Below are positions 1 through 55,535 of a stretch of DNA of 62,939 bases, one piece after another (the stretch's first letter is position 1; every line of letters starts with the position of its first letter). The stretch is from Catajapyx aquilonaris. Lineage: Eukaryota. The notes under the pieces were generated by a model. That model was not told where the DNA came from. It did not search any database and saw nothing but the letters and a program-made list of their open reading frames with translations. Location: contig KZ538546.1 in assembly GCA_000934665.2 (NCBI GenBank), positions 1-62,939 on the forward strand, read 5' to 3'. The translations under genes were made by a program, and so were the position numbers.

Positions 1-436
1 CCGAGATATTCTCGAAGCATCGGTATCGCTTACAGCTGCAACAGTGTGGATCTTCCGTTAGAAATCATTGTTGCAGAGTAGGTATTAATGGAAAAAATAC
101 AGGACAGTCCTGCAGGTTCAGGTTGCAAATTATTATTTGGCAGCTACAGTAGTTTCATTGATTTGCTTGACATTTACGTGCAACTCCATGGAAATGGCAA
201 TGTCTGAAAAATTACACCCTGCGGAAGGCATTGCCTTTACTGCCCTGACCTCCAAAAATGTAACCTTACTTGCAGCAAGAGCTAATAACTTGCTTGCAGT
301 CAGGTCCTGTAGCGCGAGCTGCTACAGGCTTTCCCGTGTGGTTCACGTGGCTGCGGCCTTCCACCTTGGCTACCCGGATCTGAACAGCCTGTGGAATCTT
401 CCTTGGGCGCTTACGTGCCGTTGCGTCTTCTGCCAT
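1..436 (-). CDS. 5' part of a probable Sola-type DNA transposase (2 exons, runs off the window)
   Basis: ATG at 436 in the context CAACCATGG. Exon 1 436-294 encodes MAEDATARKRPRKIPQAVQIRVAKVEGRSHVNHTGKPVAARATGPDC. A phase-2 intron ends at acceptor TTGCAG (AG at 37-36), and exon 2 35-1 completes N and encodes CKRYRCFENIS. The joined GKxVxARxxGPDCxCxxxxCFE resembles the N-terminal Cys motif I recall from Sola-like transposases. Subterminal repeats lie just upstream. Confidence 0.6.
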
Positions 437-527
437 GGTTGCACAATGGTTGCACAATGGTCATGCATAAGTAGCACCAACCTCGTCCAATGGAGCGGAC
501 GCCATTTTGAATTTGGTGTTTTCTGGT

Positions 528-752
528 AAAACAACCGATGTCAGTGACATCGGTTGTTTTTCTGGAAAACCGCTCTTGACATCGGTTGTTTTTGCGTAAC
601 CTGTATTTTTTTACAATGGTATTTCTCCCTTTGACATCGGTTGTTCTTGGGTGCGATTTTAATGGGACGTAGGACAGGCTTGGAAATATCTGAATTTGTA
701 TTTATTTCATTTTGCCCATTTTTTGACATGGGTTGTTTTAAAAAAAAAACCC
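528..752. mobile_element. Transposon terminus with subterminal repeats TGACATCGGTTGTTTT
   Basis: Perfect 16-bp palindrome at 528-543/545-560, with further copies at about 577, 632 and 724. Probable end GGG near 752 on the minus strand, directly upstream of the transposase ATG. Confidence 0.65.
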
Positions 753-1499
753 TTATCGATCCTCTGGTGGCTAGGAAGGCAGTCATATACGTCGGGGCAC
801 TGAGTTCATATACAACCTGTATAGGCCTACTCTAAACCCAATGGTCCACGTGGCATTCATCACACTCCTTGATAATCTCAAGATCGTACCAGTAGTGTAC
901 ACCAAAATACACTCCAAATCGGCCCTATTTTGCCTTAGACCTAGAGTCACCTCAATGTACACTGTACAGTACACCGTTGAGTACTGTACAAGCGTGTAAG
1001 CCACTAAATCCGCCAATTGTCAGAAAATTTCCAGAATACCAGTTAGATTTAGTGTAAATAATTTTCCTTGTATTTTTCCCATGTCCGCCCCATAGCTTAA
1101 ACATTTCTTACTGGTTGCTGGTTGCACCATGAAATAATAGCCTATAGTCTATACAAAAGTAACCTTTTATAGGCTATCATTTGTGCAATTTTCAGGTACT
1201 TCCCAAAGTACTACTTGTTAAGATAAGTATGAAAAGCTAGGAGCATTCTCAGGAAAATAATGTTAATTTCGCAAGCTGTATACAGTTTCCTTTTTTCAAA
1301 TCATTTGTAATACCGTACATAGCCTATAGTCCTATACAGTCCTCAGTGTACACCAGGGGAAAATGGCAAAACATTTGCAATAAATATGGCATGTTTACTA
1401 TGTTGGCATATGCCATGTTTTCGTTTGTGTGTGCTGTAATTACAGCTAAGTCATCTGTTCCCTGAGGAGTTAATTATTATTGTTCACAGATTCATTTTC

Positions 1500-1975
1500 T
1501 ACACTATCTACAGTATAACACTGCCTTCGACTTTGAGGATCACATTGTTATACAGTACTTGCATTTCAAACTTGATTTCAAGGCTTTACTTGTCAAAAGC
1601 TATTGGTCTCTACATCTTCTGGCCCGGTATTAAAAGATTTAAGAAATGGAGCGAATACAGTATCAAGGCTAATATGCAGGATGTTCCAACCGAGGCTCCA
1701 CCTTGTCCTTATAGTGACTAAGGATTCGGAGGTAATAAAATGGTATTTAAAATGCAACGGCCACACGTGTTATAAGCTTATAACCAGCCATTACCAGAAA
1801 TAAGCTGACATGAAACATGGATGTCGTTCATGGGAGTGGGGATGTCTTCAAAGGCTCTTTGTGGAGATGAACTACAGAAACATTAGTGGACACCCAGCAA
1901 GATTTTATCATCGTGGCATCTCAGCTTGCCAGAACATATTAAGTTGCTGTTCGTACCTGGAGAAGATATTGAGGC
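1500..1975 (+). pseudogene. Highly degenerate pogo/Tigger-like transposase remnant
   Basis: Broken frames give KRFKKWSEYSIK (CENP-B HTH-like) and PSKILSSWHLSLPEHIKLLFVP (DDE_1-like), with many stops and frameshifts. Confidence 0.35.
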
Positions 1976-1992
1976 GAGGGGGAAATCACTTA

Positions 1993-2975
1993 GGCCGGAA
2001 TCGCGGTGTCTCCCACATGTGTGCTCCTGCAAGTCACGTGACGCCTGTAAACATGGCGGCCGGTAAAGGAGCCTTATATCTAAAGGAGAAGTCCATCGTG
2101 GTGAACTAGCTTATCGGCTCTTTAATCGGCCGGACTAACCCCCCCGCAACCCCCAGATATCACTTGCAAAGCCTGGTATCCGTGACGCAATGGGCTCTAA
2201 CAGCCAATCCCGGAACAGGCTTCTCGCGCGGTTGCATGGGGGGTGTGTGTAGGTGGTGGCAAGGGTGGGGGTGGGGGTTTCTCTGTCAGGTTGGGGGGTA
2301 GGGTAGGGTGGCAATCATCGGCGTAGGGCCCTAGGTGCGCAATGTGAACCATGTGGCCGGCGGGCGGTGCATATCCTTCCCGACTACGTACGACTACGTA
2401 CGACTACGACTACGACTCGTACAATGAGCATCCAAACTGGCCCTCGGGCTGCCCCTGGGTGCACCCCACACCATTGCATTGCATTCGGTTGGGGATGTGA
2501 TGATAAATCCGACATTACAGAACTGAGAACGCACATTCAAAGTGGCCCCGGGCCGCCCCGGGGCCGCCCCTAGCCACGGTCCGCCCACAGCCACGATCCG
2601 TCCCGGTCCTCACTCCACATGATTTCATTGCATTTGGTTGGTGAGGCGATGTAAAATCCGCCCTGACGGAAGTCACATCCTAAAAGGCCCCCGGGCCGCC
2701 CCGGGGCCGCCCCAAGCCCCATGCCTCCCCCGAGCACTCTCCCCCGCAACCTGAAGCAAACCCTGCCCCACCAAAACTCCCTGGGGGCCTGAAAAAGCCC
2801 AGGGCCAACACTCCCATAAGTCCTATGGAATCTCGAGACGTCCCGTGGATTTACAGGATGTTTTCAATCGCGCGCCTCCTGTAACTTTTCACCACGGTGG
2901 CGTCCGTCGTCCGTATGGGAGTTACGTCACAATTTATGCCCCTGCAGACTTACGCGAGCCGCCACGATTCCGGCC
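1993..2975. mobile_element. PIF/Harbinger-type non-autonomous element
   Basis: TIR GGCCGGAATCGCGG / CCACGATTCCGGCC with TTA on both flanks. The GC-rich interior holds a degenerate ~140-bp direct repeat at about 2470-2715. Confidence 0.75.
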
Positions 2976-3982
2976 TTAGTAAGTCCGTTGACCGTTGCAC
3001 ACCGACACCTAAGTCCGCCTTAAGTTCGACTAAGTCCTTTGTACAGTCAGGCACATAGTGATTTCCCCCTCGTACTGAGGGCCATTCGGATGAACTGAAT
3101 GCTCACTGGGAAAACATAAAGCCCATTCCACACATCCAACATGTCCACAGTGTGCATTGTGTTGGTGATTATGGCTTGTCAGATTGGCTGAAATGTCCGG
3201 TATGGCATGGTGACCAATGTATTCTCCACACTTTTGTTCTCTAGAGAATCAACCATGAATTCGCCGAGTTATGAAATAATTGTCAAGCATTAATTTTAAT
3301 TAACTATTATCTTCATTTATTATTTTCTTTTGTAAAATATGTCTAACGTATATTTAGTGTTCCAAATCCCTTCTTTCCCCCTCCTCCCACTGCCATCCCC
3401 CTGGATCATAACAAAGTTGCATAGGGACAGAGAATGCTTTTGGCCTTCTCAACGTATCATTTGGTTGCATATGTTTTGTTCTTTTACAGATATAGTGGCC
3501 AAAAATTGAGGATCATGTCTCAATATTTCTCAGAGGTCACCACAGTTAGAAATGCTGATTAGTTTTGTTCCCTGGTTTTCTCATTATTTTAGTTGCACTC
3601 TTCATGAATCAAAATGTTCATCAAGTTGTGCAACTCAGCTAGATATCTGTGTAATCATAGTCTATAATACTAGAACAAAGCTATTCATCCTTTTTCTGGT
3701 TAAAAATATTTTTCTTTTCATTTGTTATTTTGTTCATGGCTATAAAGAGATTTTCTTATACTTTCTTCCCTTGTTGCTGATTTATGACATTCATTTTAAA
3801 ATCTATATTTGCATTTATTTCATGAACTGAAGAATAATTGAATTGCGATAATGACCATCGTAAAATAATGCATGATGTTGACAATCGCTTTTGGACACAG
3901 CAAGGATTCGGGCCAGCCCAGGTTGAAAAGAGAGGAGTGGGACCTGGGACCTTGAGAACCACTGATCTATTATGTATATATA

Positions 3983-15500: not shown

Positions 15501-17826
15501 GGCGACAGAAAAACGAAGGGGAGAAGGCAAGCTTGACACTTACTTGGTTGATTGTCACTATCAACCAATCCATTAGCTGCTCTGGGAACTGGGGACCCAG
15601 ACCCTGGTTCAGATCCTCCTTTCTTCTCTAAACTGTTAGTTACATCATTCTCCTCTAATGGCGGCAGTTCAAACTCACCTTTCACTGGGGACATTGGTGA
15701 CATGTTGATACTGAAAGACAGGAAGTATGAACTTGTATGTCAACAAATGAGGCATTAATGCAACAAGTCCAATTTTGTCTTTACCTGGAGTTGATAGCTG
15801 TTGGTGATTTCGGGGAATTTGATGAATTTCTCTTCACAGTGTAAGATCCCTTCTGGTGTTCCTTTGTGAGTTTGTCCACTATGGCTTCCAATTCACTGTA
15901 AACCTACAACCCAAAATCGAAAGTAGGTATGCTGCATAGGGGTTCTCTTCCAAAAAGTACACCAACCTTGGCAGTTTCAGCATGGAACAGCTGTTCTGAA
16001 GCAAACATAGTTTGCAAATTGGTGACCAGGAATAATATCCTCGACTCAAACAGTGCTGGTAGCTCATCATGAAGCTCACTGTTTAGAACTTCATATGTTC
16101 TTTTGGCATCTTCAAGCTGCTCTTTACACTTGTCTATTTTGACCCCATCTCTTTTCTTGGGATTATTCTTGAGAGACTGGAAGTTGTGACGCTGGCTGTC
16201 ATAGTCCACAAGCTTTCTTCCACGTTTGTCGATTTTTTTCTGCAAATCAAGAAAAAATTAGCTTTCACAAGTTCATAAGTCTGAGGAATTCATGGTTCTA
16301 ATGCTATCTGTTAAATATCCAAACTAGTTTCATTTCTTACCCTCATTTCTGGAAATTGACTTTGATATGTATTGAGAGGAATCAGCACTTGGTCCGCCAG
16401 TTTGTGACTAAAATCTTGCCATAGCATGTCCACATTTTGGGCTTGCACATGGTAAAGTTCCTGTCCCACCCAGTCCGGTTCATATACATCATTCAGAATG
16501 TCCATGAGATTCTTGCTAGAGGACTGTAGTGCTGCATTTTTAAAAAAAACATGCAAGCTGTTGAGCTCAGTATGGCTATGCTATATAAATCATACACTAT
16601 AAAAATAGCAATTGACATGAACAGTCTCACCTACCATCTGACTCGCAGGTATGCACATAGGGGTTTCATCACTTACCTCTTACACACCTGATGTAATTGT
16701 TCAATTCTTTTTGTAGTCTATTGGCAGCACTCTGCTGCCTGGTAAAATTTGAAACGTGCTCATCAAAGATCTCATCAGCTGTCCTGTCAACTTTCCCAAG
16801 ATTTTGTAAAATCTGCAAAAATTAGAAAAGACATGAGGCAAAGAATTCTGTTCGTGGATCATCACACCAGTGATCTAGAAGAAAAAGGCTATCATTGACC
16901 ACTTTCAAATCAGTAATGCGCTTTTAGGCACTTGGGCTGTTGACTGACACTAGTAGGTATTGGGACATTAACTGTTTCAAATTATGAACGAAGATAGTAT
17001 GCTGCATCCAGTCTGAGAGGTGTTATCCCCGCCGGGAATCGAACCCGGGACCCTGCCCACTAAGAGAGCAGTGCTCTGCCACTAAGCTACAGGGATCAGC
17101 AACAACCTCCATTGAACGATGACCCACATTGTTTGGGGATGAAATATATGGTGGTTGGGTAGGAAGCTAAAAATCCAGTGCCACACTCTGTGCTACATTG
17201 TACAGAGTTGCCATGTGCCCATGTGCAGTGCAATTCAGCAATATTATACCTTTCTAATCACAATGCCTACTTTACTATAAATGTGTATAAAACAAAAGGT
17301 CCTGAAATAAACTTTGCCAAACAAACGACCACCGCTGCCATTATGTAACTGGCATTTCATACACACACTATTTATGGAAAAAACATAACCTAAAAAAGCT
17401 CCACAACAGTGGAGTGTTCCTAACATTTTATTGTCAGTATCCCATTCACTAAATGTGCTTCCAATATTATTCAAGGACGCTATCCATGTGTATCGGGACG
17501 TGATGCTGATCTGCGTCGTCAACATCCATAAACATCATCAATACCGCAATTTTTATTTGATTTCGCAATCAGCACTTCCAACTTCGTAAAAATGGGCAAC
17601 CTTGCGCCATATCTCTCGATTATTGACAAAATAAAAGAAGGAGTGTTAATCAGCAAAAGGCGGTTCCCAACGTGTGACGCTTACATCGCGGAACCATTGC
17701 ACACTCGACTTGGAGCCTTCATGGACTCTCACGTTCTCGTTCACATGCCAAAAAAAGTTGCAATAATTACGAGACTCGTTATCATCTCTGGCTGCTCACA
17801 CCTTCACAACTCACAACACTTTGCGG

Positions 17827-17879
<53 letters not shown>

Positions 17880-38797: not shown

Positions 38798-41700
38798 CTA
38801 TTTCTTCAAAAGCTGATGGCGCAAAACAAGGAAAGGGATGGACAATCCACTACCAAAGAAGACGACAAAGAGGGCAGCCAGCCGATACCTGTTCTGTATC
38901 TGGAATGGCAAATTCTGTGGAGGAAAAGAATATTGCTAAGTTATAGACAATCCATATCACCTTTAGGTTCAAAAGCAGTTTCACAAGATGGCTGATAAAC
39001 CCTATTAATGCCTTTCAATCGCAATATTTTGTAACAAAGTGTGAGGGTAAATGAATGAGTTAACTTATCCTTTTAGAAAGCTAAATCTAATGAAAATGCT
39101 TCAAGTGGACTGTAAGACTGAAAGTTGGGAAGACAGAATGGTGCTGCAGTAATGTACTATGACAGTAATGACACACAAAGGATTGTTGCAATCGTATCAG
39201 TTTGGTGTTCGCGAGTTCTAGATTAGGCCTCCTCCCGCAAGGTGCGCTGCCAGTGTCAGCAGACGGAGTGGTGTCAATTAGAGTAGGCTACCAACATACA
39301 TGATTCGTTCATGTGACCTGGACAGAACCGTGTTGCATATAGTGATTGGCAGAGTGGTAAGGGCTGGGGAGGGGCGGATGAGGTTGTGCAAAGGTCTCCT
39401 CAGGCATTTTGTAGGATAAAGAAAAAATATGCCTCACACACACAGCCACCACAGATATTAACGCCCAGGGGTTTCGCTCAAGAAGTACTATGGGGCTCAA
39501 TTTGTTGTGGCCACTTTAACCCGATCTTGAAGCAACCCTTCGCACAGGCCCCATGGTGAGCAGGTGTGTGTGTGTGTGAAGGGTTGCTTCAAGACCAGGA
39601 TAAAGTGGCCACAACAAATTGAGCCCCATAGTACATATTAGGGACAACATCTACAGGCCACCTGTTCAGCAGAATGGCAGATACAAGACTGAAGTCAACA
39701 AACACTGCCCCTAACATCAAAAGCAGTCTGGCAACCTGGGCAACACACAACAGCCGGGGTGCCAGGTCGCTACACTCCTCCCCCCTTAAAACAAAACAAG
39801 ACGCTTCACGTTCCAACAATGCTCCTCTTCTAGCTTGGACTTCTTCCTTTTTTCCCCCAGTTCATCCTGCTCAAATCTGTCCCTCTCCAGCTGGACTTAT
39901 TTCCAAGGTCACGCTTCATGTCCTCCCACAGCTTGTCACCAGTATCTGCTTGGCCACCAAACTCCTCCAGTACAACGTCTGCTTCCCCATCAGACTTTTC
40001 AAATACACTGTCTGCTTGACCACTAGACTCCACACGCACATCGTCTTCTTGCACTTGGGCCTCTTCTCACCCCTCGACTTGGTCCAGCGTCTCGACACCC
40101 TCTCTACGGACATTCACCTTGTCTTTGACCTATGTGTTCCACTGACTACCTCCACCACGGTGACAGCTCTTGGGATGATTCTGTACTGGCCTCTGAAGTG
40201 TCATTGCTTTCATCCAGACCTCCTGTCTCTGGCTTTAGGATCTGTCTGCCTCCTGGCTCTCTGCATCATGGCCAGCATCCCCCAGTACCTCTCCCTATGC
40301 TTTTTTCCAGCCCATCGATGGTACGGAGCAATCCCATGGTGCCCTCTGCCTGGCACTCCTCGGCCCCCATCTGCTCTCGGCACATCAAATCACCCCTCCC
40401 CAGGAGGGTCTCTGCAGCTCTCTTACAGCTAAGAGTGACATATTCCTCGCTGCTGTCATATTCTGCCCAACACATGTCTGTCTGCCCCCCCGATGGTATC
40501 TCCACCTTATCGTGGTGGTGGGGTTTGCGTTTCTGCTGTGACCCCAAGAGTTATGCCGGTGGTAGCTTCGTCTTCTGGCAGGGCCACCCAAGCCGGACAG
40601 GTCTTTGGGATAGGAGACCAGTCTTTCCTCTCTTCTTTTTCCTCTTCGTTTCTCTCTCCATCCCACCTTCGCATCTTCCTACAGTCAGATAGCCACAGTT
40701 GCTTTGGCTTCTTCCTAATAAACCAAACCAAACCATGTCTGTCTGCCATGACTTCTCCTGGCAGAATGTGGGCAGACACACTCTGCTCGCCACTCTGTTA
40801 ACCCTGGAACTGTGCCATGGGGTCTTTTTGGACCCCAAGGAAAAAAATGCATTAAAATGATAATTACAATGAACTTTTGCCATTTTTTTTTACAGTATTT
40901 TACAGTACAGGACGTGCAGGTTTATTTTGAATTAGCAATCATTTTAGGCATTGTTCAAAGAATGATTGTATAATTATAGTCCATACATTGAAAAGTATTA
41001 TATAATAATTAATAAAAATTAAAATATGGTGGGGTCTGAAAAGACCCCACGGCACGGTTGCCGTAATACTCGTAGGCACGGCACGGTTCCAGGGTTAAGT
41101 CCAATGGCTGACGTGCCTGTGCATAAACTGCAAGATAGTGCTTGCCTGTCCTATAAGTACCAGAAGGTTCAAAATACCAGCTCGTGCTCGTCTTTACCCT
41201 GTCCGTTGAATGGTGTCGAAACAGTAGCACCGCAAAAACTTATTTTCCAAGTGACCCTCGTAAGGAGGTAGGGAAAGAAGAAGAATTATGCTGCGTTGTT
41301 TACCAGTTTGAAAAGAACAAAGTGATCTGTGTCAATCAACGATGAGGGTAATATTAACTCGTAGTGATTGTTGATGAGGGTAAATGCTGGGGTAAATGTC
41401 TTTCCCTACTCTATCACCCTCATCTTTGACCTGGTGACTTGGGTAGTACACAGCAGCTTGTGTAAACTACACATAAACAGTGTGCAGCATTTAGAGCCTA
41501 TGCAGTGTGCAGAGACCTTTATTCACGCGAGGCACTGTTATCGTCATTCTGACATTGGTCCAAGTCGTGGGTTGAACCTACTGGGGATGCGCAGCAAACA
41601 TGCACCAATTCTGGGCAAATTTTGATAACAAAAAGGACCTGGATACTTGGAACACACCATATGCAGGCTGTAACAAAAGTCAGTTCAGAACTCTTATCAG

Positions 41701-41977
41701 TGCAAGCCCATTTACACTCCTCATTCAAGTTTACACCCCACGGATAAGGTGGATTGTCAGCAACCCTCCTTTACAAGCACACGGAATGTTGTCTGTTAAC
41801 ATTGCTTAAGCTTATGTGAGCATAGCTTATCTGGAAGCCAAAGCAACTGGGGCCATGATGCATGGGGGGAGAGGAGTCAATACTAACCCCTCCAGGAACG
41901 CCTCCGTCGTGCCCACGACGGTACGCCGAAGTGAAAATATTGCGAGTAGCTACAGCCGTCCTACCGATCAGCGACAT
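38798..41977 (-). CDS. COX7C: Cytochrome c oxidase subunit 7C, mitochondrial (68 aa)
   Basis: Exon 41977-41888 encodes MSLIGRTAVATRNIFTSAYRRGHDGGVPGG, followed by donor GTTAGT. Exon 38914-38798 follows CAG and encodes NLPFQIQNRYRLAALFVVFFGSGLSIPFLVLRHQLLKK*. The GGVPGxNLPF and PFLxxRHQLLKK motifs are characteristic of COX7C. There is a 3'UTR intron at 38785-38730 and ATTAAA near 38690. Confidence 0.95.
39410..39774 (-). mobile_element. 3' LTR of a degenerate Ty3/gypsy-like element
   Basis: TGTAG...CTACA ends, preceded on the minus strand by a polypurine tract AAGGGGGGAGGAG at about 39775-39788. Decayed internal sequence extends toward about 41500. No 5' LTR was found. Confidence 0.6.
39488..39631. 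mobile_element. TA-flanked MITE inserted in the LTR
   Basis: About 54-bp arms CTATGGGGCTCAATTTGTTGTGGCCACTTTA... / ...TAAAGTGGCCACAACAAATTGAGCCCCATAG. Confidence 0.85.
40487..40733 (+). mobile_element. Short non-autonomous retroelement with RTE-5'UTR-like head and (CAAAC)n tail
   Basis: 14-bp TSD CATGTCTGTCTGCC at 40473-40486 and 40734-40747. No A/B boxes. The head reads CCACCTTATCGTGGTGG...AGGGCCACCCAAGCCGGACAGGTC. Confidence 0.8.
40802..41094. mobile_element. piggyBac-type MITE
   Basis: TTAA|CCCTGGAACTGTGCC...GGCACGGTTCCAGGG|TTAA, with subterminal GGGGTC..GACCCC palindromes. Confidence 0.9.
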
Positions 41978-45900: not shown

Positions 45901-48900
45901 AAATGAGTCTGAAATAGCATTATACAAGCTTTCCAGTTGTAGTACTGTAATGCTTTTTGGATTTAACAAGGATGAAGCTTCCTTCGCCCCTAATGGGTGG
46001 TGTAACACAATGGCCTATATATATGTAAAGGGAGTTAGGACAATGTATGGACTATTTTTTTGCACCAATATTCCCAGTGCAAAATTCTTTGTGGTTTGGG
46101 GAGATGAAGTGGCGCCGCGGTAACGCGCGCGCCCACGGATATTAAGGTCCCGGGTTCAATCCCCACCCGGGGTTCCCACCTTTATCCGTGCAGAGTTGGG
46201 CCATCTCTGGCTTCATTTCGGGTGGCAAATTCCGGCAGACTAAGCCACCCGGGGGAGTTCACAAAATGACGATTAGAGACATTGCACTTGCACTTTGCAC
46301 ATCCCCTCCCACCCACCCTTGGAGCATACTAATTAAGATTCTTCTTCAACTTGCTCCAAAACAAATTCCAAAGGTGGCAACCCACCCCCCCTAAGGAGTA
46401 GTATAACTCCCCCCGTGGGGTAATGAAAAAAAAAAATCTTTGTGGCTATTAGTAAATGTAAAATACAGTTATCAAATTTTCATTTATGAGATTTTATGAT
46501 CTTGCCAAGATTACACAAGCTTATGAGCAGAAAGTGGATATGAGCCGGTAGCCTGGATTCTTCTGCATGTTTTCACCATTTAGAAGGCCTGTTTGACCAT
46601 CAAGTAGAGTAGAGGATCTCAAAAAACATTCATGAAAGGCACTGAAATTACTGTGATAGTGCTAATTAGCATCTTCTAATCATGAGGATTTCTTTTATAG
46701 CCTACTCATCTATATTTTCTTTACAGCTTGGAGTGCATGATTGTGGCGAATGATGCAACTGTTAAAGGGGGTTCATATTATCCTATTACTGTGAAAAAGC
46801 ATCTACGGGCACAAGAAGTCGCTCTAGAAAACCGCTTGCCTTGCATATACCTGGTGGATTCAGGTGGGGCCAACTTGCCACGACAGGCAGAGGTTTTCCC
46901 GGATCGAGAACATTTTGGAAAGATATTTTATAATCAGGCCAACATGAGCTCTCTTGGAATTCCACAGGTGAGTTTGTCACTGAATGGTAGTGTGCTCCAG
47001 AATTAATTTTTTGCATGATACCCTGTAGGTGGCAGTAGTGCTTGGGAGCTGTACTGCTGGAGGGGCATATGTACCAAGCATGGCAGATGAGAGTATCATA
47101 GTTCGGAAGCAAGGAACAATATTCCTGGGTGGTCCGCCATTGGTGAAAGCAGCCACTGGGGAGGAGATATCTGCTGAAGAATTGGGAGGGGCTGATCTCC
47201 ATTGTGGGTGAGGATATGCCCATTTCAGTGCATCTTCTGTTTGTTCTATCTTCAGCCTTACCTGCACCTTGCAGCAAGTCGGGCGTGACTGATCACTATG
47301 CTGTGGATGACCATCATGCATTGCATTTGGCTCGCCGAGTGGTGAGCACATTGAATCTACAAAAGATTCCTCAAGTCACTACCAGTGATCCTGAGGACCC
47401 TCTGCACCCACCAGAAGAGCTATATGGGATTGTGGGTAGCAATCTGAAGAAGGCATTTGATGTTCGAGAGGTGAGTAGAGTGTTGTAATAAAAAAGCAAA
47501 AATTCTGACTCCACAAACCTTGATTTTTCTGGTGTTTTGGGAAAAATTATTTTACTGCGAATGGTCAAAGTTTTCAGAAACTATTTGGTTTTTTTATGCT
47601 CATTATCAAGCTACTACTTACTTTGTCTGTAGCAATTAATGTAACTTGTCACACACAAGTCAAATTAATTGCTACAGACAAAGTAAGCAGACCCTTATCA
47701 CCCTCTAGCTGAGACACAATTGGTGCCATTTCTTCAAATTACTCACCAATCATTACTTTCAGGTGATTGCTCGAATAGTGGATGCATCTAAATTCGATGA
47801 ATTCAAGAGCAAGTACGGTGAAACTTTAGTTACAGGATTTGCACGGCTTTACGGTTATCCTGTTGGCATTATTGGAAATAATGGGGTTCTCTTTTCCGAA
47901 TCAGCTCTAAAGGTGAGTTTTGTGAATATATTGTGTATTTGCACCCTCCAACACAGTTTTGGATTGCAGGGAACACACTTCATCCAGCTCTGTGCACAGC
48001 GAAAAATACCTTTATTATTCTTGCAAAACATCACAGGTATGACTATGTTATGTGTATGTTGCTACAATGGTACCTGTCTCTAACTGCACATATCCCTCTT
48101 GGCAGGTTTCATGGTTGGTCGTGATGCAGAAGCAGGTGGGATAGCAAAAAATGGAGCAAAAATGGTTACCGCCGTTGCCTGTGCCAAAGTGCCTAAGTTG
48201 ACTCTGATCATTGGAGGGTCTTATGGAGCTGGAAATTATGGCATGTGTGGTCGTGCTTATAGGTGAGGCCACTTTTGAATTGCGCGTAATACGGAAATTT
48301 TCCAGTCCAGGTCAAAAGTCAGCTTTTGTGAACAATGTGGAAATATGCATGTGGTACATGCGTTGAGTTGTAAATCATTGCACATATTTTTTAAATTCGC
48401 AAACTGTAGCATGTACAGAGATTACCTTTACGACCTTTAGAAAGTCCGACGAGTACAATTTGATATGGTATATAGATGGGGCACAGATTGCAAAGGGGGC
48501 CAGTAAACAAAAGCAGATCTTAACCCCACCACCACCACCACATAGCCTGAGCCTGATGCGCTTCGAGTGGCAGTGTTCCTTCATCAAAGTCCAGGTCATT
48601 CTCGGTTATGGTGCCGTTGCCATTATCTATGAGCAGTTGGTGAGAGCTGTAGGTGTCATCAGCACTCTACAACTACGCACAGTCCAACACTGGGCCAACG
48701 CTTTCAGCGGAGGGCAAGAGGATAGACTCTTCAACCAGTCCCGATCCAGTAGACAGCATCATTTCATCACTGGAACTGTTGAATGTTGCAGGACACTTGT
48801 GATAATATACAACATAGGAGCTTGCTTTCGAGTGTGGGACAATTCGGAGCACAATGCTTAGGACTCTGAAAGATATGCAACGTTTAATGGCTCCGGAGAT

Positions 48901-55204: not shown

Positions 55205-55535
55205 CTCCCTTGCCTATCTTGTCTGATTTGGATCCAACCATTTTGTTGGCGAGCTCTCCTTTCGTTCCTGAAAACCAACTTTTACAGGCATTTATGAATG
55301 TTGGCTGTTCAATATACTACCATAGTAATGTTGTGTTTCACATACCATACTTATTAGAATTTTATAAAACTGGAGCTTCTTGTGTCTTCCATGATAAAAT
55401 ATGTAGGCTAAATACCTTTCCCCCTTTTTTTGGCATGGGTTGGCAGAGACTGCACAACATAACACTGTGTTTAAGTGGTTTAAGGCAATATAACCATTGC
55501 TGCTTTTGTGCCATAAAAGCCAAATCAATCCATTC
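55205..55535 (+). mobile_element. 3' end of an I/Nimb-like LINE
   Basis: DLDPTILLASSPFVPENQLL resembles I/Nimb ORF2 C-termini from memory. The tail reads GCTGCTTTTGTGCCATAAAAGCCAAATCAATCC. Confidence 0.45.

Follow-up and report, generated by a model that had tools for sequence, protein, structure and literature searches.

An abundant non-autonomous retroposon family of Catajapyx aquilonaris with a head related to the 5' terminus of Rex3/RTE LINEs and a candidate HDV-like fold

Background

Derivatives of RTE-family LINEs that have no ORF and join a 5' part to a 3' part are a described class of bipartite element (Kojima 2018, PMC5786205), and passages of the same paper present bipartite LINEs as thought to be transcribed by RNA polymerase II (Pol II) from the extreme 5' region of the LINE. 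HDV-like ribozymes have already been reported at RTE 5' ends, according to passages that cite Ruminski 2011. As portions of the literature describe them, most HDV-like ribozymes have a P1 helix of 6-7 bp, and one tested HDV-like ribozyme with no spacer or a 1-nt spacer between P1 and P2 had no or little activity. In passages of PMC3185411, the first 77 nt of the L1Tc element act as promoter and as ribozyme alike. HDV-like RTE 5' ribozymes and bipartite RTE derivatives are both already published, and ribozyme-headed non-autonomous non-LTR elements are also in print (NARTc and the R2 internal-deletion elements of Eickbush and Eickbush 2012), so that the original prediction for the locus described here was too hopeful in ranking it as the best candidate for novelty.

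Insertion, limits and abundance of the element

The window analysed, a stretch of 62,939 bases of the C. aquilonaris genome (contig KZ538546.1), contains at 40487..40733 an entire copy of a non-autonomous retroposon, which is 247 bp long and lies, like all features of it given below, on the forward strand. The copy is bracketed by two exact occurrences of the 14-mer CATGTCTGTCTGCC, the 5' (40473..40486) and 3' (40734..40747) copies of the target-site duplication (TSD). These are the only two occurrences of this 14-mer in the window; shuffling gives an expectation of 0.02 matches, and none of 100 shuffles contained at least two. A complete 247-bp insertion with a 14-bp TSD, a structured head not derived from tRNA and no RNA polymerase III (Pol III) boxes is what had been predicted, and each of these points held. 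In a scan with the A-box and B-box consensuses, no B-box was found within 2 mismatches, and the one A-box-like site had 2 mismatches. Rfam gave no match to tRNA, 5S or 7SL RNA at E<=10 in 40400-40820. With neither such a match nor a B-box, classification as a SINE in the strict sense, with a Pol III head, was rejected. The copy is too short for endonuclease or reverse-transcriptase domains; tblastn with the protein of L001, the Rex3-type LINE described below, found nothing in it, and RTE coding sequence is absent from the window.

Evidence on the family comes from a single sample, represented by three sets of DNA contigs, with 981-1060 contigs placed per run. In run X1, summed depth is 5,578-86,740 over the element and 29.5 on the unique 5' flank, which puts the element at hundreds to thousands of times the depth of the flank; in sequencing run X5, of unspecified kind, coverage is confined to the repeat parts. 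On the 5' side, 17-18 contigs go to unrelated sequence exactly before the 40486/40487 boundary, and on the 3' side 20-21 contigs diverge behind 40724, within tail repeats of varying length. The element belongs to a very abundant family, and the limits of that family, marked by loose contig ends and by steps in depth, are the ends defined by the duplication.

Three parts can be distinguished in the window copy: a head module (40487..40618), delimited by its blastn match to L001 and by the departure of contigs after 40618; a pyrimidine-rich linker (40619..40678); and a tail module (40679..40733), which has a summed depth of 38,586-86,740 in X1 and ends in AAACC repeats (40720-40733). The linker and tail are present as originally described. 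After 40618 many contigs depart from the sequence of the window, and what intervenes between head and tail varies from contig to contig. The junctions of the linker in the form found here are rare within the family, being spanned in X1 by a contig depth of 391-457 at 40618-40619 and 538-792 at 40663-40666, against 35,776-59,476 in the neighbouring bins. The rarity of these exact junctions is what might be expected if the copy were a lone LINE that had lost its interior, with no family behind it. That alternative has practically no probability, and is ruled out by the number of contigs placed in each run, the excess of depth over the flank, the 17-18 distinct 5' flanks, and the presence of the window-type junction in several diverged contigs. 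The deleted junction is common to several diverged contigs, so that copying of this form may have gone on even though the fold was not intact. One contig of 7.6 kb carries the head at its bases 1007-1135.

Relationship of the head and tail to RTE LINEs

The proposed resemblance of the head to the 5' end of RTE LINEs proved right: by blastn, 40502-40609 of the window aligns with 189-296 of L001, a LINE of Rex3 type, with 71.6% identity over 109 aligned positions. Within this match, a core of 29 nt differs between the two by one base, at 40519. L001 is a full-length LINE with an ORF of 1064 amino acids, containing endonuclease and RVT_1 domains, directly downstream of the head match; the ORF is followed by stop-GCG-(GAA)2-(GATG)n, which is the published tail signature of teleost Rex3 (RTE family). 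No TSD was found for L001 (the longest shared string was 5 nt), so its 5' end is undefined. Searches for further relatives by motif scanning gave no matches in viral contigs; in genome contigs they gave none and then two (L002 and L003), which were rejected as chance, each being 22-23 nt long. A phage collection, which is of little informative value here, also contained nothing that matched. A scan guided by the protein of the L001 ORF found no relative in viral contigs, and in genome contigs it found partial Rex3-like ORF fragments in two records of bacterial metagenome-assembled genomes (L004 and L005). The head is absent from both, and a head search of those two genomes returned only a 21-nt match with an E value of 0.02.

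The tail had been likened to a LINE end near 55490 of the window, where blastn gives no match. A 23-nt, 91% match to the tail was seen on the minus strand at 41856-41834, with no adjoining repeat tail, and is taken as chance or an old fragment.

The favoured interpretation, to which we assign a probability of roughly 0.55, is that the element is a bipartite non-autonomous retroposon put together from non-coding sequence of the 5' terminus and the 3' terminus of an RTE-family LINE, and that its head is the HDV-like 5' RNA of that LINE. Of the features of such elements, the homology of the 5' part to the 5' end of an RTE LINE is provided by L001, and the element is non-coding, TSD-flanked and multi-copy; the AAACC-repeat tail is present and would be the 3' part. 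We infer that head and tail both descend from one RTE. Mobilisation would be due to an RTE reverse transcriptase acting by target-primed reverse transcription.

The original prediction had instead proposed a chimera borrowing the reverse transcriptase of another LINE. An RTE head joined to the tail of a different LINE clade, whose enzyme mobilises the element, would agree with the variable sequence between head and tail and with the failure to see a parent LINE, but it is unlikely, for nothing points to another LINE as the source of the tail: the claimed likeness near 55490 is absent, short tandem-repeat tails have been reported for the RTE-type elements Rex3 (GATG) and Perere-3 (GTAA), and derivatives consisting of both ends of one RTE are, as noted above, a described class.

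Structure of the head

In the proposed fold, the 5' strand of P1, CCCCG (40488..40492), begins at nucleotide 2 of the element, 1 nt inside the 5' limit of the family (40486/40487), and pairs with its 3' strand TGGGG (40519..40523), which directly follows the P3 hairpin. The latter (40502..40518) is formed by CCACC and GGTGG around a 7-nt loop, L3 (40507-40513), and lies within the 29-nt core; this stem, one of several in the original prediction, exists and is invariant between the window and L001. L001 is able to form the same 5-bp P1 helix one register over (178-182 with 206-210), and its P3 consists of 189-193 and 201-205.

The proposed 5' strand of P2 is TGGTATCTC (40494..40502), the partner of which is absent from the window copy. 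L001 has an 8-bp counterpart of its own, 182-189 with 314-321, in which every base finds its complement, a result equalled or bettered by 21-29 of 2000 shuffles. Arthropod contigs that run on past 40618 read AGACTAAGAGAGATACCA..., and the GAGATACCA within them matches the reverse complement of 40494-40502 at every base; this proposed P2 3' strand (P2') comes from the consensus for 10-11 contig ends, whose agreement is 0.53-0.54. The fish and arthropod P2 sequences are wholly different, yet they occupy the same place and their complementarity is kept. Because P1 and P2 cross, the fold would be a pseudoknot. P2' is preceded by a joiner consisting of C and then N-A-A-G in L001 (308-312) as well as in three of the arthropod variants; it reads C-A-A-A-G in L001 and C-T-A-A-G in the family consensus and two other variants. 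In an HDV-like ribozyme this is the place of the catalytic C, with a constrained A, a role that the C of the joiner may have here. The first ATG of the L001 ORF lies 12 nt after P2'.

Between P1 and the end of the head lies a P4-like peripheral domain (40524..40618), with helices 40543-40552/40599-40609 and 40556-40560/40592-40596 and hairpins 40561-40565/40572-40576 and 40581-40583/40587-40589; the domain has 5 pairs changed on both sides relative to L001. Across the 32 proposed pairs, in an alignment of two homologues only (the window head and L001), 96.9% of cells are paired and 5 pairs are changed on both sides, whereas slid controls gave 40.6-60.9% and 0-2 such pairs; the observed pairing values were reached by 14 of 500 shuffles. 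The compensatory change in P1 requires a one-base shift of the alignment, and on the columns given by MAFFT it is one broken cell. Within the family, variants at 40557, 40560 and 40593 of the P4-like domain keep pairing, and a near-fixed T>A at 40574 restores a pair. Among 41 of the 49 variants, none falls in 40487-40534, against at least 17 variant positions in 40535-40619.

The other stems of the original prediction fared unevenly. Compensatory changes relative to the fish homologue support CCCAAGA/TCTTTGGG and, of the two pairings offered for TGCCGG, CCGG/CCGG; that with CTGGCA found no support. GTTTCT/GGAGAC is peculiar to the window copy, the near-fixed C of the family at 40535 giving CUCC/GGAG in its place. 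Folding of the window head as a whole is no better than that of shuffles (z -0.35).

The window copy has neither the joiner nor the 3' strand of P2; its longest exact complement to the P2 5' strand is 5 nt. A substitute P2' at 40687-40695, an 8-bp duplex interrupted by one bulge (-6.8 kcal/mol), was rejected, since 850 of 2000 and 178 of 2000 shuffles were equally good. With these two pieces missing, the window copy probably cannot cleave. It is an internally deleted and probably inert variant, and as it stands it is an ordinary decayed repeat.

Possible function of the head

In the intact head, as predicted from sequence, the strands succeed one another as in the nested double pseudoknot of HDV-like ribozymes: first P1 at the 5' end, next the 5' strand of P2, P3 with L3, the 3' strand of P1, an extensive P4, the C-N-A-A joiner and, last, the 3' strand of P2. 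This arrangement is found in L001 and in the continuing contigs of the family, though not in the window copy. The head would thus be the 5'-terminal structured RNA of the LINE, and its most likely function, at about even odds, would be to cut itself where P1 begins, at the first base, by which the exact 5' end of the element could be freed from any longer transcript, a process already described for other RTE elements. The 5' processing ribozyme of the original prediction is a reasonable candidate function.

Some dimensions depart from those of HDV-like ribozymes: P1 has 5 bp in place of 6-7, P2 has 8-9 bp in place of about 7, and the spacer between them is 0-1 nt. P3 has 4-5 bp, the P3 of HDV having 3. 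For P1.1, the 1-2 bp that connect L3 with the bases following P1', only a weak A-U and a G-U pair are possible, in a core identical in the window and L001. No Rfam ribozyme model matched at E<=10 in 40400-40820 of the window or 140-380 of L001, and hammerhead, hatchet, pistol, twister-sister, hairpin and VS models were likewise without a match at E<=10 in either head.

These departures and the lack of an Rfam match would also suit a non-catalytic 5' UTR of conserved structure, serving as an internal Pol II promoter or initiator, as a binding site for an RTE protein or as a structure for translation initiation, with the 5' end of the element set by initiation of transcription. Conservation and covariation indicate a functional RNA or DNA and do not specify catalysis; the proposed Pol II transcription of bipartite LINEs from their extreme 5' region, the double role of the start of L1Tc as promoter and ribozyme, and the copies with the deleted junction in several diverged contigs also point this way. 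Such a 5' UTR is possible though doubtful, since the crossing of P1 and P2, the succession of P3/L3 and P1', and the C-N-A-A joiner before P2' are specific to the HDV-like plan, and P1 begins at the end of the element.

The head of Rex3-type RTEs might be a self-cleaving ribozyme with an architecture of its own within the HDV-like plan, having a 5-bp P1, a 4-5-bp P3 and a three-way P4 of about 95 nt, and conserved from a teleost LINE to a very abundant arthropod non-autonomous family. This more specific suggestion is a tentative one and rather improbable; were it true, it would imply constraint of great age, or else that an RTE lineage had passed between fish and arthropods.

A new ribozyme class for the head is very unlikely. 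The absence of matches to known ribozyme models, the unusual lengths of P1 and P3, the three-way P4 domain of about 95 nt, and the conservation of a CACCCAAG stretch and of CTGG(C/T)AGGG, which are unpaired in the nested model, would be in keeping with it. HDV-like ribozymes, however, can escape sequence-based models, every conserved long-range pairing fits the HDV-like strand order, and the candidate cleavage is itself a proposal from sequence alone. The uncharacterised fold that the original prediction had envisaged gives way to a topology of strands in the intact head that is HDV-like and already reported at RTE 5' ends.

Extremely little probability attaches to a variant of the twister ribozyme such as is found 5'-terminally in Perere-3, an RTE-clade LINE of Schistosoma mansoni. 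The short strings CUCC, GUAGCU, CCCAAGC-CGG and GGAG do occur in the published order of the S. mansoni twisters, which are also located at a non-LTR 5' end with the TSD adjoining the cleavage site. The head, however, has an additional 7-bp helix between the CUCC/GGAG helix and the CCGG helix, and by visual comparison it lacks the loops for two pseudoknots and the UAA cleavage loop. L001 has CCCATGA where twister has CCCAAGC, the cut would fall downstream of about 50 nt that are kept in every copy, and no Rfam twister match was obtained at E<=10.

Conclusions and comparison with known elements

Should the intact head cleave, the HDV-like set would gain, in this family and in teleost Rex3, members with a P1 shorter and a P3 longer than the norm, which would be informative on the tolerance of the HDV-like fold; release from any host transcript would then explain the precise 5' ends and high copy number of a promoter-less element. 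The likeness of a non-coding head between fish and arthropod is usable as a marker of the spread of RTEs between phyla.

The element resembles the bipartite RTE LINEs RTE-N2_Lch, WALLSI3/RTESINE2 and MAR4_MD, as passages on them describe these, in retaining nothing but a piece from the 5' side of an RTE, in most of those elements its extreme end, and what is probably a 3' piece, in having no ORF and no Pol III head, and in its size (about 250-300 bp; RTE-N2_Lch consists of 214 + 70 bp). It differs from them in that the origin of its tail was inferred and that the nearest available relative of its head is teleost Rex3 and not an arthropod element.

R2 internal-deletion elements reportedly keep the 5' ribozyme. 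Like the present family as interpreted here, they have lost internal sequence and retain both termini of the LINE from which they come, but they are confined to one rDNA site, whereas the C. aquilonaris family is dispersed with varied flanks. [quoted passage not shown] 2021 (PMC8501958) give of it, is different, and the defining features of twister are not found in the head. NARTc, together with L1Tc of Trypanosoma cruzi, is a counterpart of the Ingi/L1Tc clade, not of RTE, whose RNA cleaves at +1 by experiment according to passages of PMC3185411, whereas the head described here is known from its sequence.

Compared with the HDV-like 5' ribozymes of R2, RTE, baggins and L1Tc, as parts of the literature present them, the head differs in its 5-bp P1 (not 6-7 bp), 0-1-nt spacer, 4-5-bp P3, doubtful P1.1 and lack of an Rfam match. 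It shares with them the order P1-P2-P3-L3-P3'-P1'-P4-joiner-P2' with crossing of P1 and P2, the position of P1 at the 5' end of the element, a conserved P3/L3/P1' core beside a variable P4, a C followed by As before P2' and, in L001, a fold that adjoins the start of the ORF.

Limits of the element

The sequence description of the 247-bp insertion at 40487-40733 given in the original prediction was borne out on inspection. The target-site duplication (TSD) is an exact 14-mer, CATGTCTGTCTGCC, at 40473-40486 and 40734-40747, with exactly two copies in the window (0.02 matches expected from shuffles; two copies in 0 of 100). The hexamer CCAACA at 40467-40472, which abuts the upstream TSD copy on its 5' side, resembles the end of the element's tail (CCAAAC, 40728-40733), and the direct repeat therefore reaches 20 nt at 90%, which suggests that the tail repeats may have primed on the nicked target through microhomology. 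Thirteen nucleotides located 175 nt upstream (40311-40323) show 85% likeness to the start of the element (40486-40498), probably by chance. Rfam models (E ≤ 10) gave no tRNA, 5S, 7SL or ribozyme match in 40400-40820. The element had been said to contain no Pol III boxes, and a script scan agreed: allowing up to two mismatches, it found no B-box in the element, and it found a single A-box-like site, which carries two mismatches. The tail had been likened to a LINE end near 55490, but a blastn search of the window with the element gave no match there, and with that likeness absent the description of the element as chimeric is unsupported. On the reverse strand at 41834-41856, 23 nt with no adjoining repeat tail match the tail's GCCACAGTTGCTTTGGC region at 91%, and may be an old fragment or a chance likeness.

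A high-copy family with a rare internal arrangement

The element is a member of a family, not a one-off. The locus occurs in four contig sets of one public DNA sample; three of these (X1, X2 and X3) and a fifth run, of unknown kind, were mapped on 40337-40883 at a likeness of at least 80%, and 981-1060 contigs aligned per DNA run. Summed contig depth in X1, which is not copy number, was 29.5 over the unique 5' flank (40413-40469) and 5,578-86,740 in bins inside the element, a contrast of hundreds to thousands of times. Contigs diverge to unrelated sequence just before 40486/40487 (17 in X1, 18 in X3; agreement 0.38-0.39) and, on the 3' side, behind 40724 within tail repeats of variable length (20-21 contigs); the ends of the family are therefore the TSD-defined ends. 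Many contigs also depart from the window sequence at 40618, the end of the head module. Those spanning 40618-40619 as in the window have a summed depth of 391-457, versus 35,776-58,064 in the two adjoining bins, and the junction at 40663-40666 is likewise low (538-792), so the window copy joins abundant modules in a rare arrangement with an internal deletion. Its head-linker junction is common to several diverged contigs. The 3' flank (40748-40883) is itself repeated, with summed depths of 801-1,454 at 40755-40792 and of 14,460-62,620 beginning at 40793, and divergence ahead of 40798 is seen in 29-30 contigs; the element may have inserted 14 bp within the edge of another repeat family.

Relation of the head to Rex3-type LINEs

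A core-motif scan of metagenome contigs retrieved one record, L001, which carries a full-length Rex3-type LINE from fish. Its conserved head stretch (189-296) aligns by blastn with window 40502-40609 at 71.6%, and a 29-nt core is identical at all positions but one. On the 3' side lies a single 1064-aa frame (318-3512) with the domains Exo_endo_phos, Exo_endo_phos_2 and RVT_1, and the stop codon is followed by GCG, two GAA and then GATG repeats, a pattern published as a signature of teleost Rex3, which is described as RTE-family-related. The head's likeness to an RTE 5' untranslated region, proposed originally, is thus confirmed with real sequence upstream of an endonuclease and reverse transcriptase frame. 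No RTE coding sequence was found in the window with L001 as reference. A TSD of the Rex3 copy in L001 was looked for and not found, so its 5' end is undefined; positions 1-177, ahead of it, look like another fish repeat. Fragments 81-84% identical to the Rex3-type frame occur in L004 and L005, records filed as bacterial metagenome-assembled genomes, and the simplest explanation is that DNA of the host (fish) was binned together with bacteria.

Conserved fold and strand order of the head

Thirty-two nested pairs were proposed in a two-sequence alignment of the window and L001, in which 96.9% of cells pair and five pairs are altered on both sides: three in 40556-40560/40592-40596, one at 40547/40604 and one at 40564/40573. 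Control partners slid by 1-3 columns gave 40.6-60.9% paired cells and 0-2 both-side changes, and 14 of 500 shuffles reached the observed pairing values. Each of the family variants 40557 (C>T), 40593 (C>T) and 40560 (T>C) preserves pairing. By this comparison, whose power is small with two sequences, domain 40524-40618 is clearly a conserved fold. Folded by itself, the window head does not outdo its shuffles (z -0.35); the L001 head does better, with a z of -2.5 (as good in 3 of 200 shuffles). The window copy has private changes at 40535, 40537, 40551, 40574 and 40579, where the family is near-fixed for other letters. With the family letter at 40574, a lost pair of the hairpin 40561-40565/40572-40576 is regained, and with that at 40551 a G-U pair becomes G-C. 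The predicted stem GTTTCT/GGAGAC stands for the window copy itself; with the family's letter at 40535 it becomes CUCC/GGAG. The window copy has lost part of the head fold.

Five nucleotides at the very 5' end (40488-40492; L001 178-182) pair as P1 with 40519-40523 (L001 206-210), directly 3' of the P3 hairpin in both sequences. For P2, an 8-nt segment of L001 immediately ahead of the CCACC hairpin (182-189) is exactly complementary to 314-321, which comes right after the large domain and the short sequence CAAAGT; a duplex as good arose in 29 of 2000 shuffles when everything downstream was shuffled, and in 21 of 2000 when shuffling was confined to the part beyond the domain. Arthropod-family contigs that extend beyond 40618 carry the consensus AGACTAAGAGAGATACCA..., whose initial 19 letters are identical between X1 (from 10 contig ends) and X2 (from 11), with an agreement of 0.53-0.54. 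GAGATACCA is the exact reverse complement of 40494-40502, the segment just 5' of CCACC, and a second arthropod variant has ATACCAT, complementary to 40493-40499. The P2 strands are wholly different in sequence between fish and arthropod, with position and complementarity kept. These placements give the order P1, P2 5' strand, P3 with its loop L3, P1', large P4, joiner and P2', in which P1 and P2 cross.

This order in the intact head is the plan of HDV-like ribozymes, and the suggestion that the fold could be uncharacterised is unsupported. Such ribozymes are described as cleaving at the first nucleotide of P1, with a core to which L3 and the joiner leading into P2' contribute. Further features agree with this plan: the 5' limit of the family is 1 nt ahead of P1, the near-invariant 29 nt comprise P3, L3, P1' and the bases after P1', a C followed by N-A-A-G stands ahead of P2' in L001 (308-312) and three arthropod variants, and the first ATG of L001 lies 12 nt 3' of P2'.

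Missing from the window copy is the segment AGAC-TAAGAG-AGATACCA. In all of the copy's downstream sequence, exact complements to its first 20 nt reach no more than 5 nt, and its best substitute P2 duplex (40687-40695) is no better than shuffles; as it stands, this copy is most likely unable to cleave.

Other features of the window

Across the whole window, the sole Rfam family to reach gathering score is represented by a tRNA gene on the reverse strand (17024-17096; 54.6 bits), beside which lies a long TAT/ATA-type simple repeat (about 17827-17879). About 7 kb downstream of the element and on the same strand, an open frame at 47709-48083 (+) matches the Carboxyl_trans domain (E 9.3e-24) and is presumably one exon from a gene of the methylcrotonoyl-CoA carboxylase beta type.

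Comparison with known ribozymes and retroposons

Twister variants are reported at the 5' end of Perere-3 of Schistosoma mansoni (PMC8501958), and the head has a few short strings in common with them in the same order. A twister reading was rejected: an extra helix intervenes, the head has neither the UAA cleavage loop nor the loops that the two pseudoknots of a twister require, the AAGC string is missing from L001, and a cut would remove about 50 nt kept by all copies.

The HDV-like reading has misfits of its own. P1 is 5 bp, versus 6-7 described for most HDV-like ribozymes, and the P1-P2 spacer is 0-1 nt; in one tested HDV-like ribozyme, no spacer or a single-nucleotide spacer reportedly gave no or little activity. 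P3 is 4-5 bp, and P1.1 could form only A-U plus G-U, in a core that does not vary. One P1 pair, G-U in the window and U-A in L001, counts as compensatory only after a one-base shift of the 5' strands, the MAFFT columns giving one unpaired cell, and Rfam models (E ≤ 10) matched neither the window head nor the L001 head. Ribozyme function of the head is plausible as a prediction from sequence, and the chance that the intact head, a putative ribozyme, self-cleaves may be put at roughly even.

The insertion is genuine and complete, a copy with a TSD on each side of a high-copy retroposon that is probably bipartite and derived from an RTE. Its head corresponds to the RTE 5'-terminal structured RNA, which in intact form has an HDV-like topology. 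Bipartite non-autonomous LINEs without open reading frames have been described, built from a 5' and a 3' portion of RTE, Ingi, Vingi and R2 elements; the extreme 5' end is usually retained, a feature tied to 5' ribozymes predicted for several RTE families (Kojima 2018, PMC5786205). A review places HDV-like ribozymes in baggins elements and RTEs, and NARTc is reported to have an HDV-like ribozyme head in common with L1Tc, with cleavage at +1 (PMC3185411). The intact head resembles HDV-like ribozymes in its crossing P1 and P2 helices; P1 at the element's 5' end and the C-N-A-A-G ahead of P2' would be consistent with that plan.
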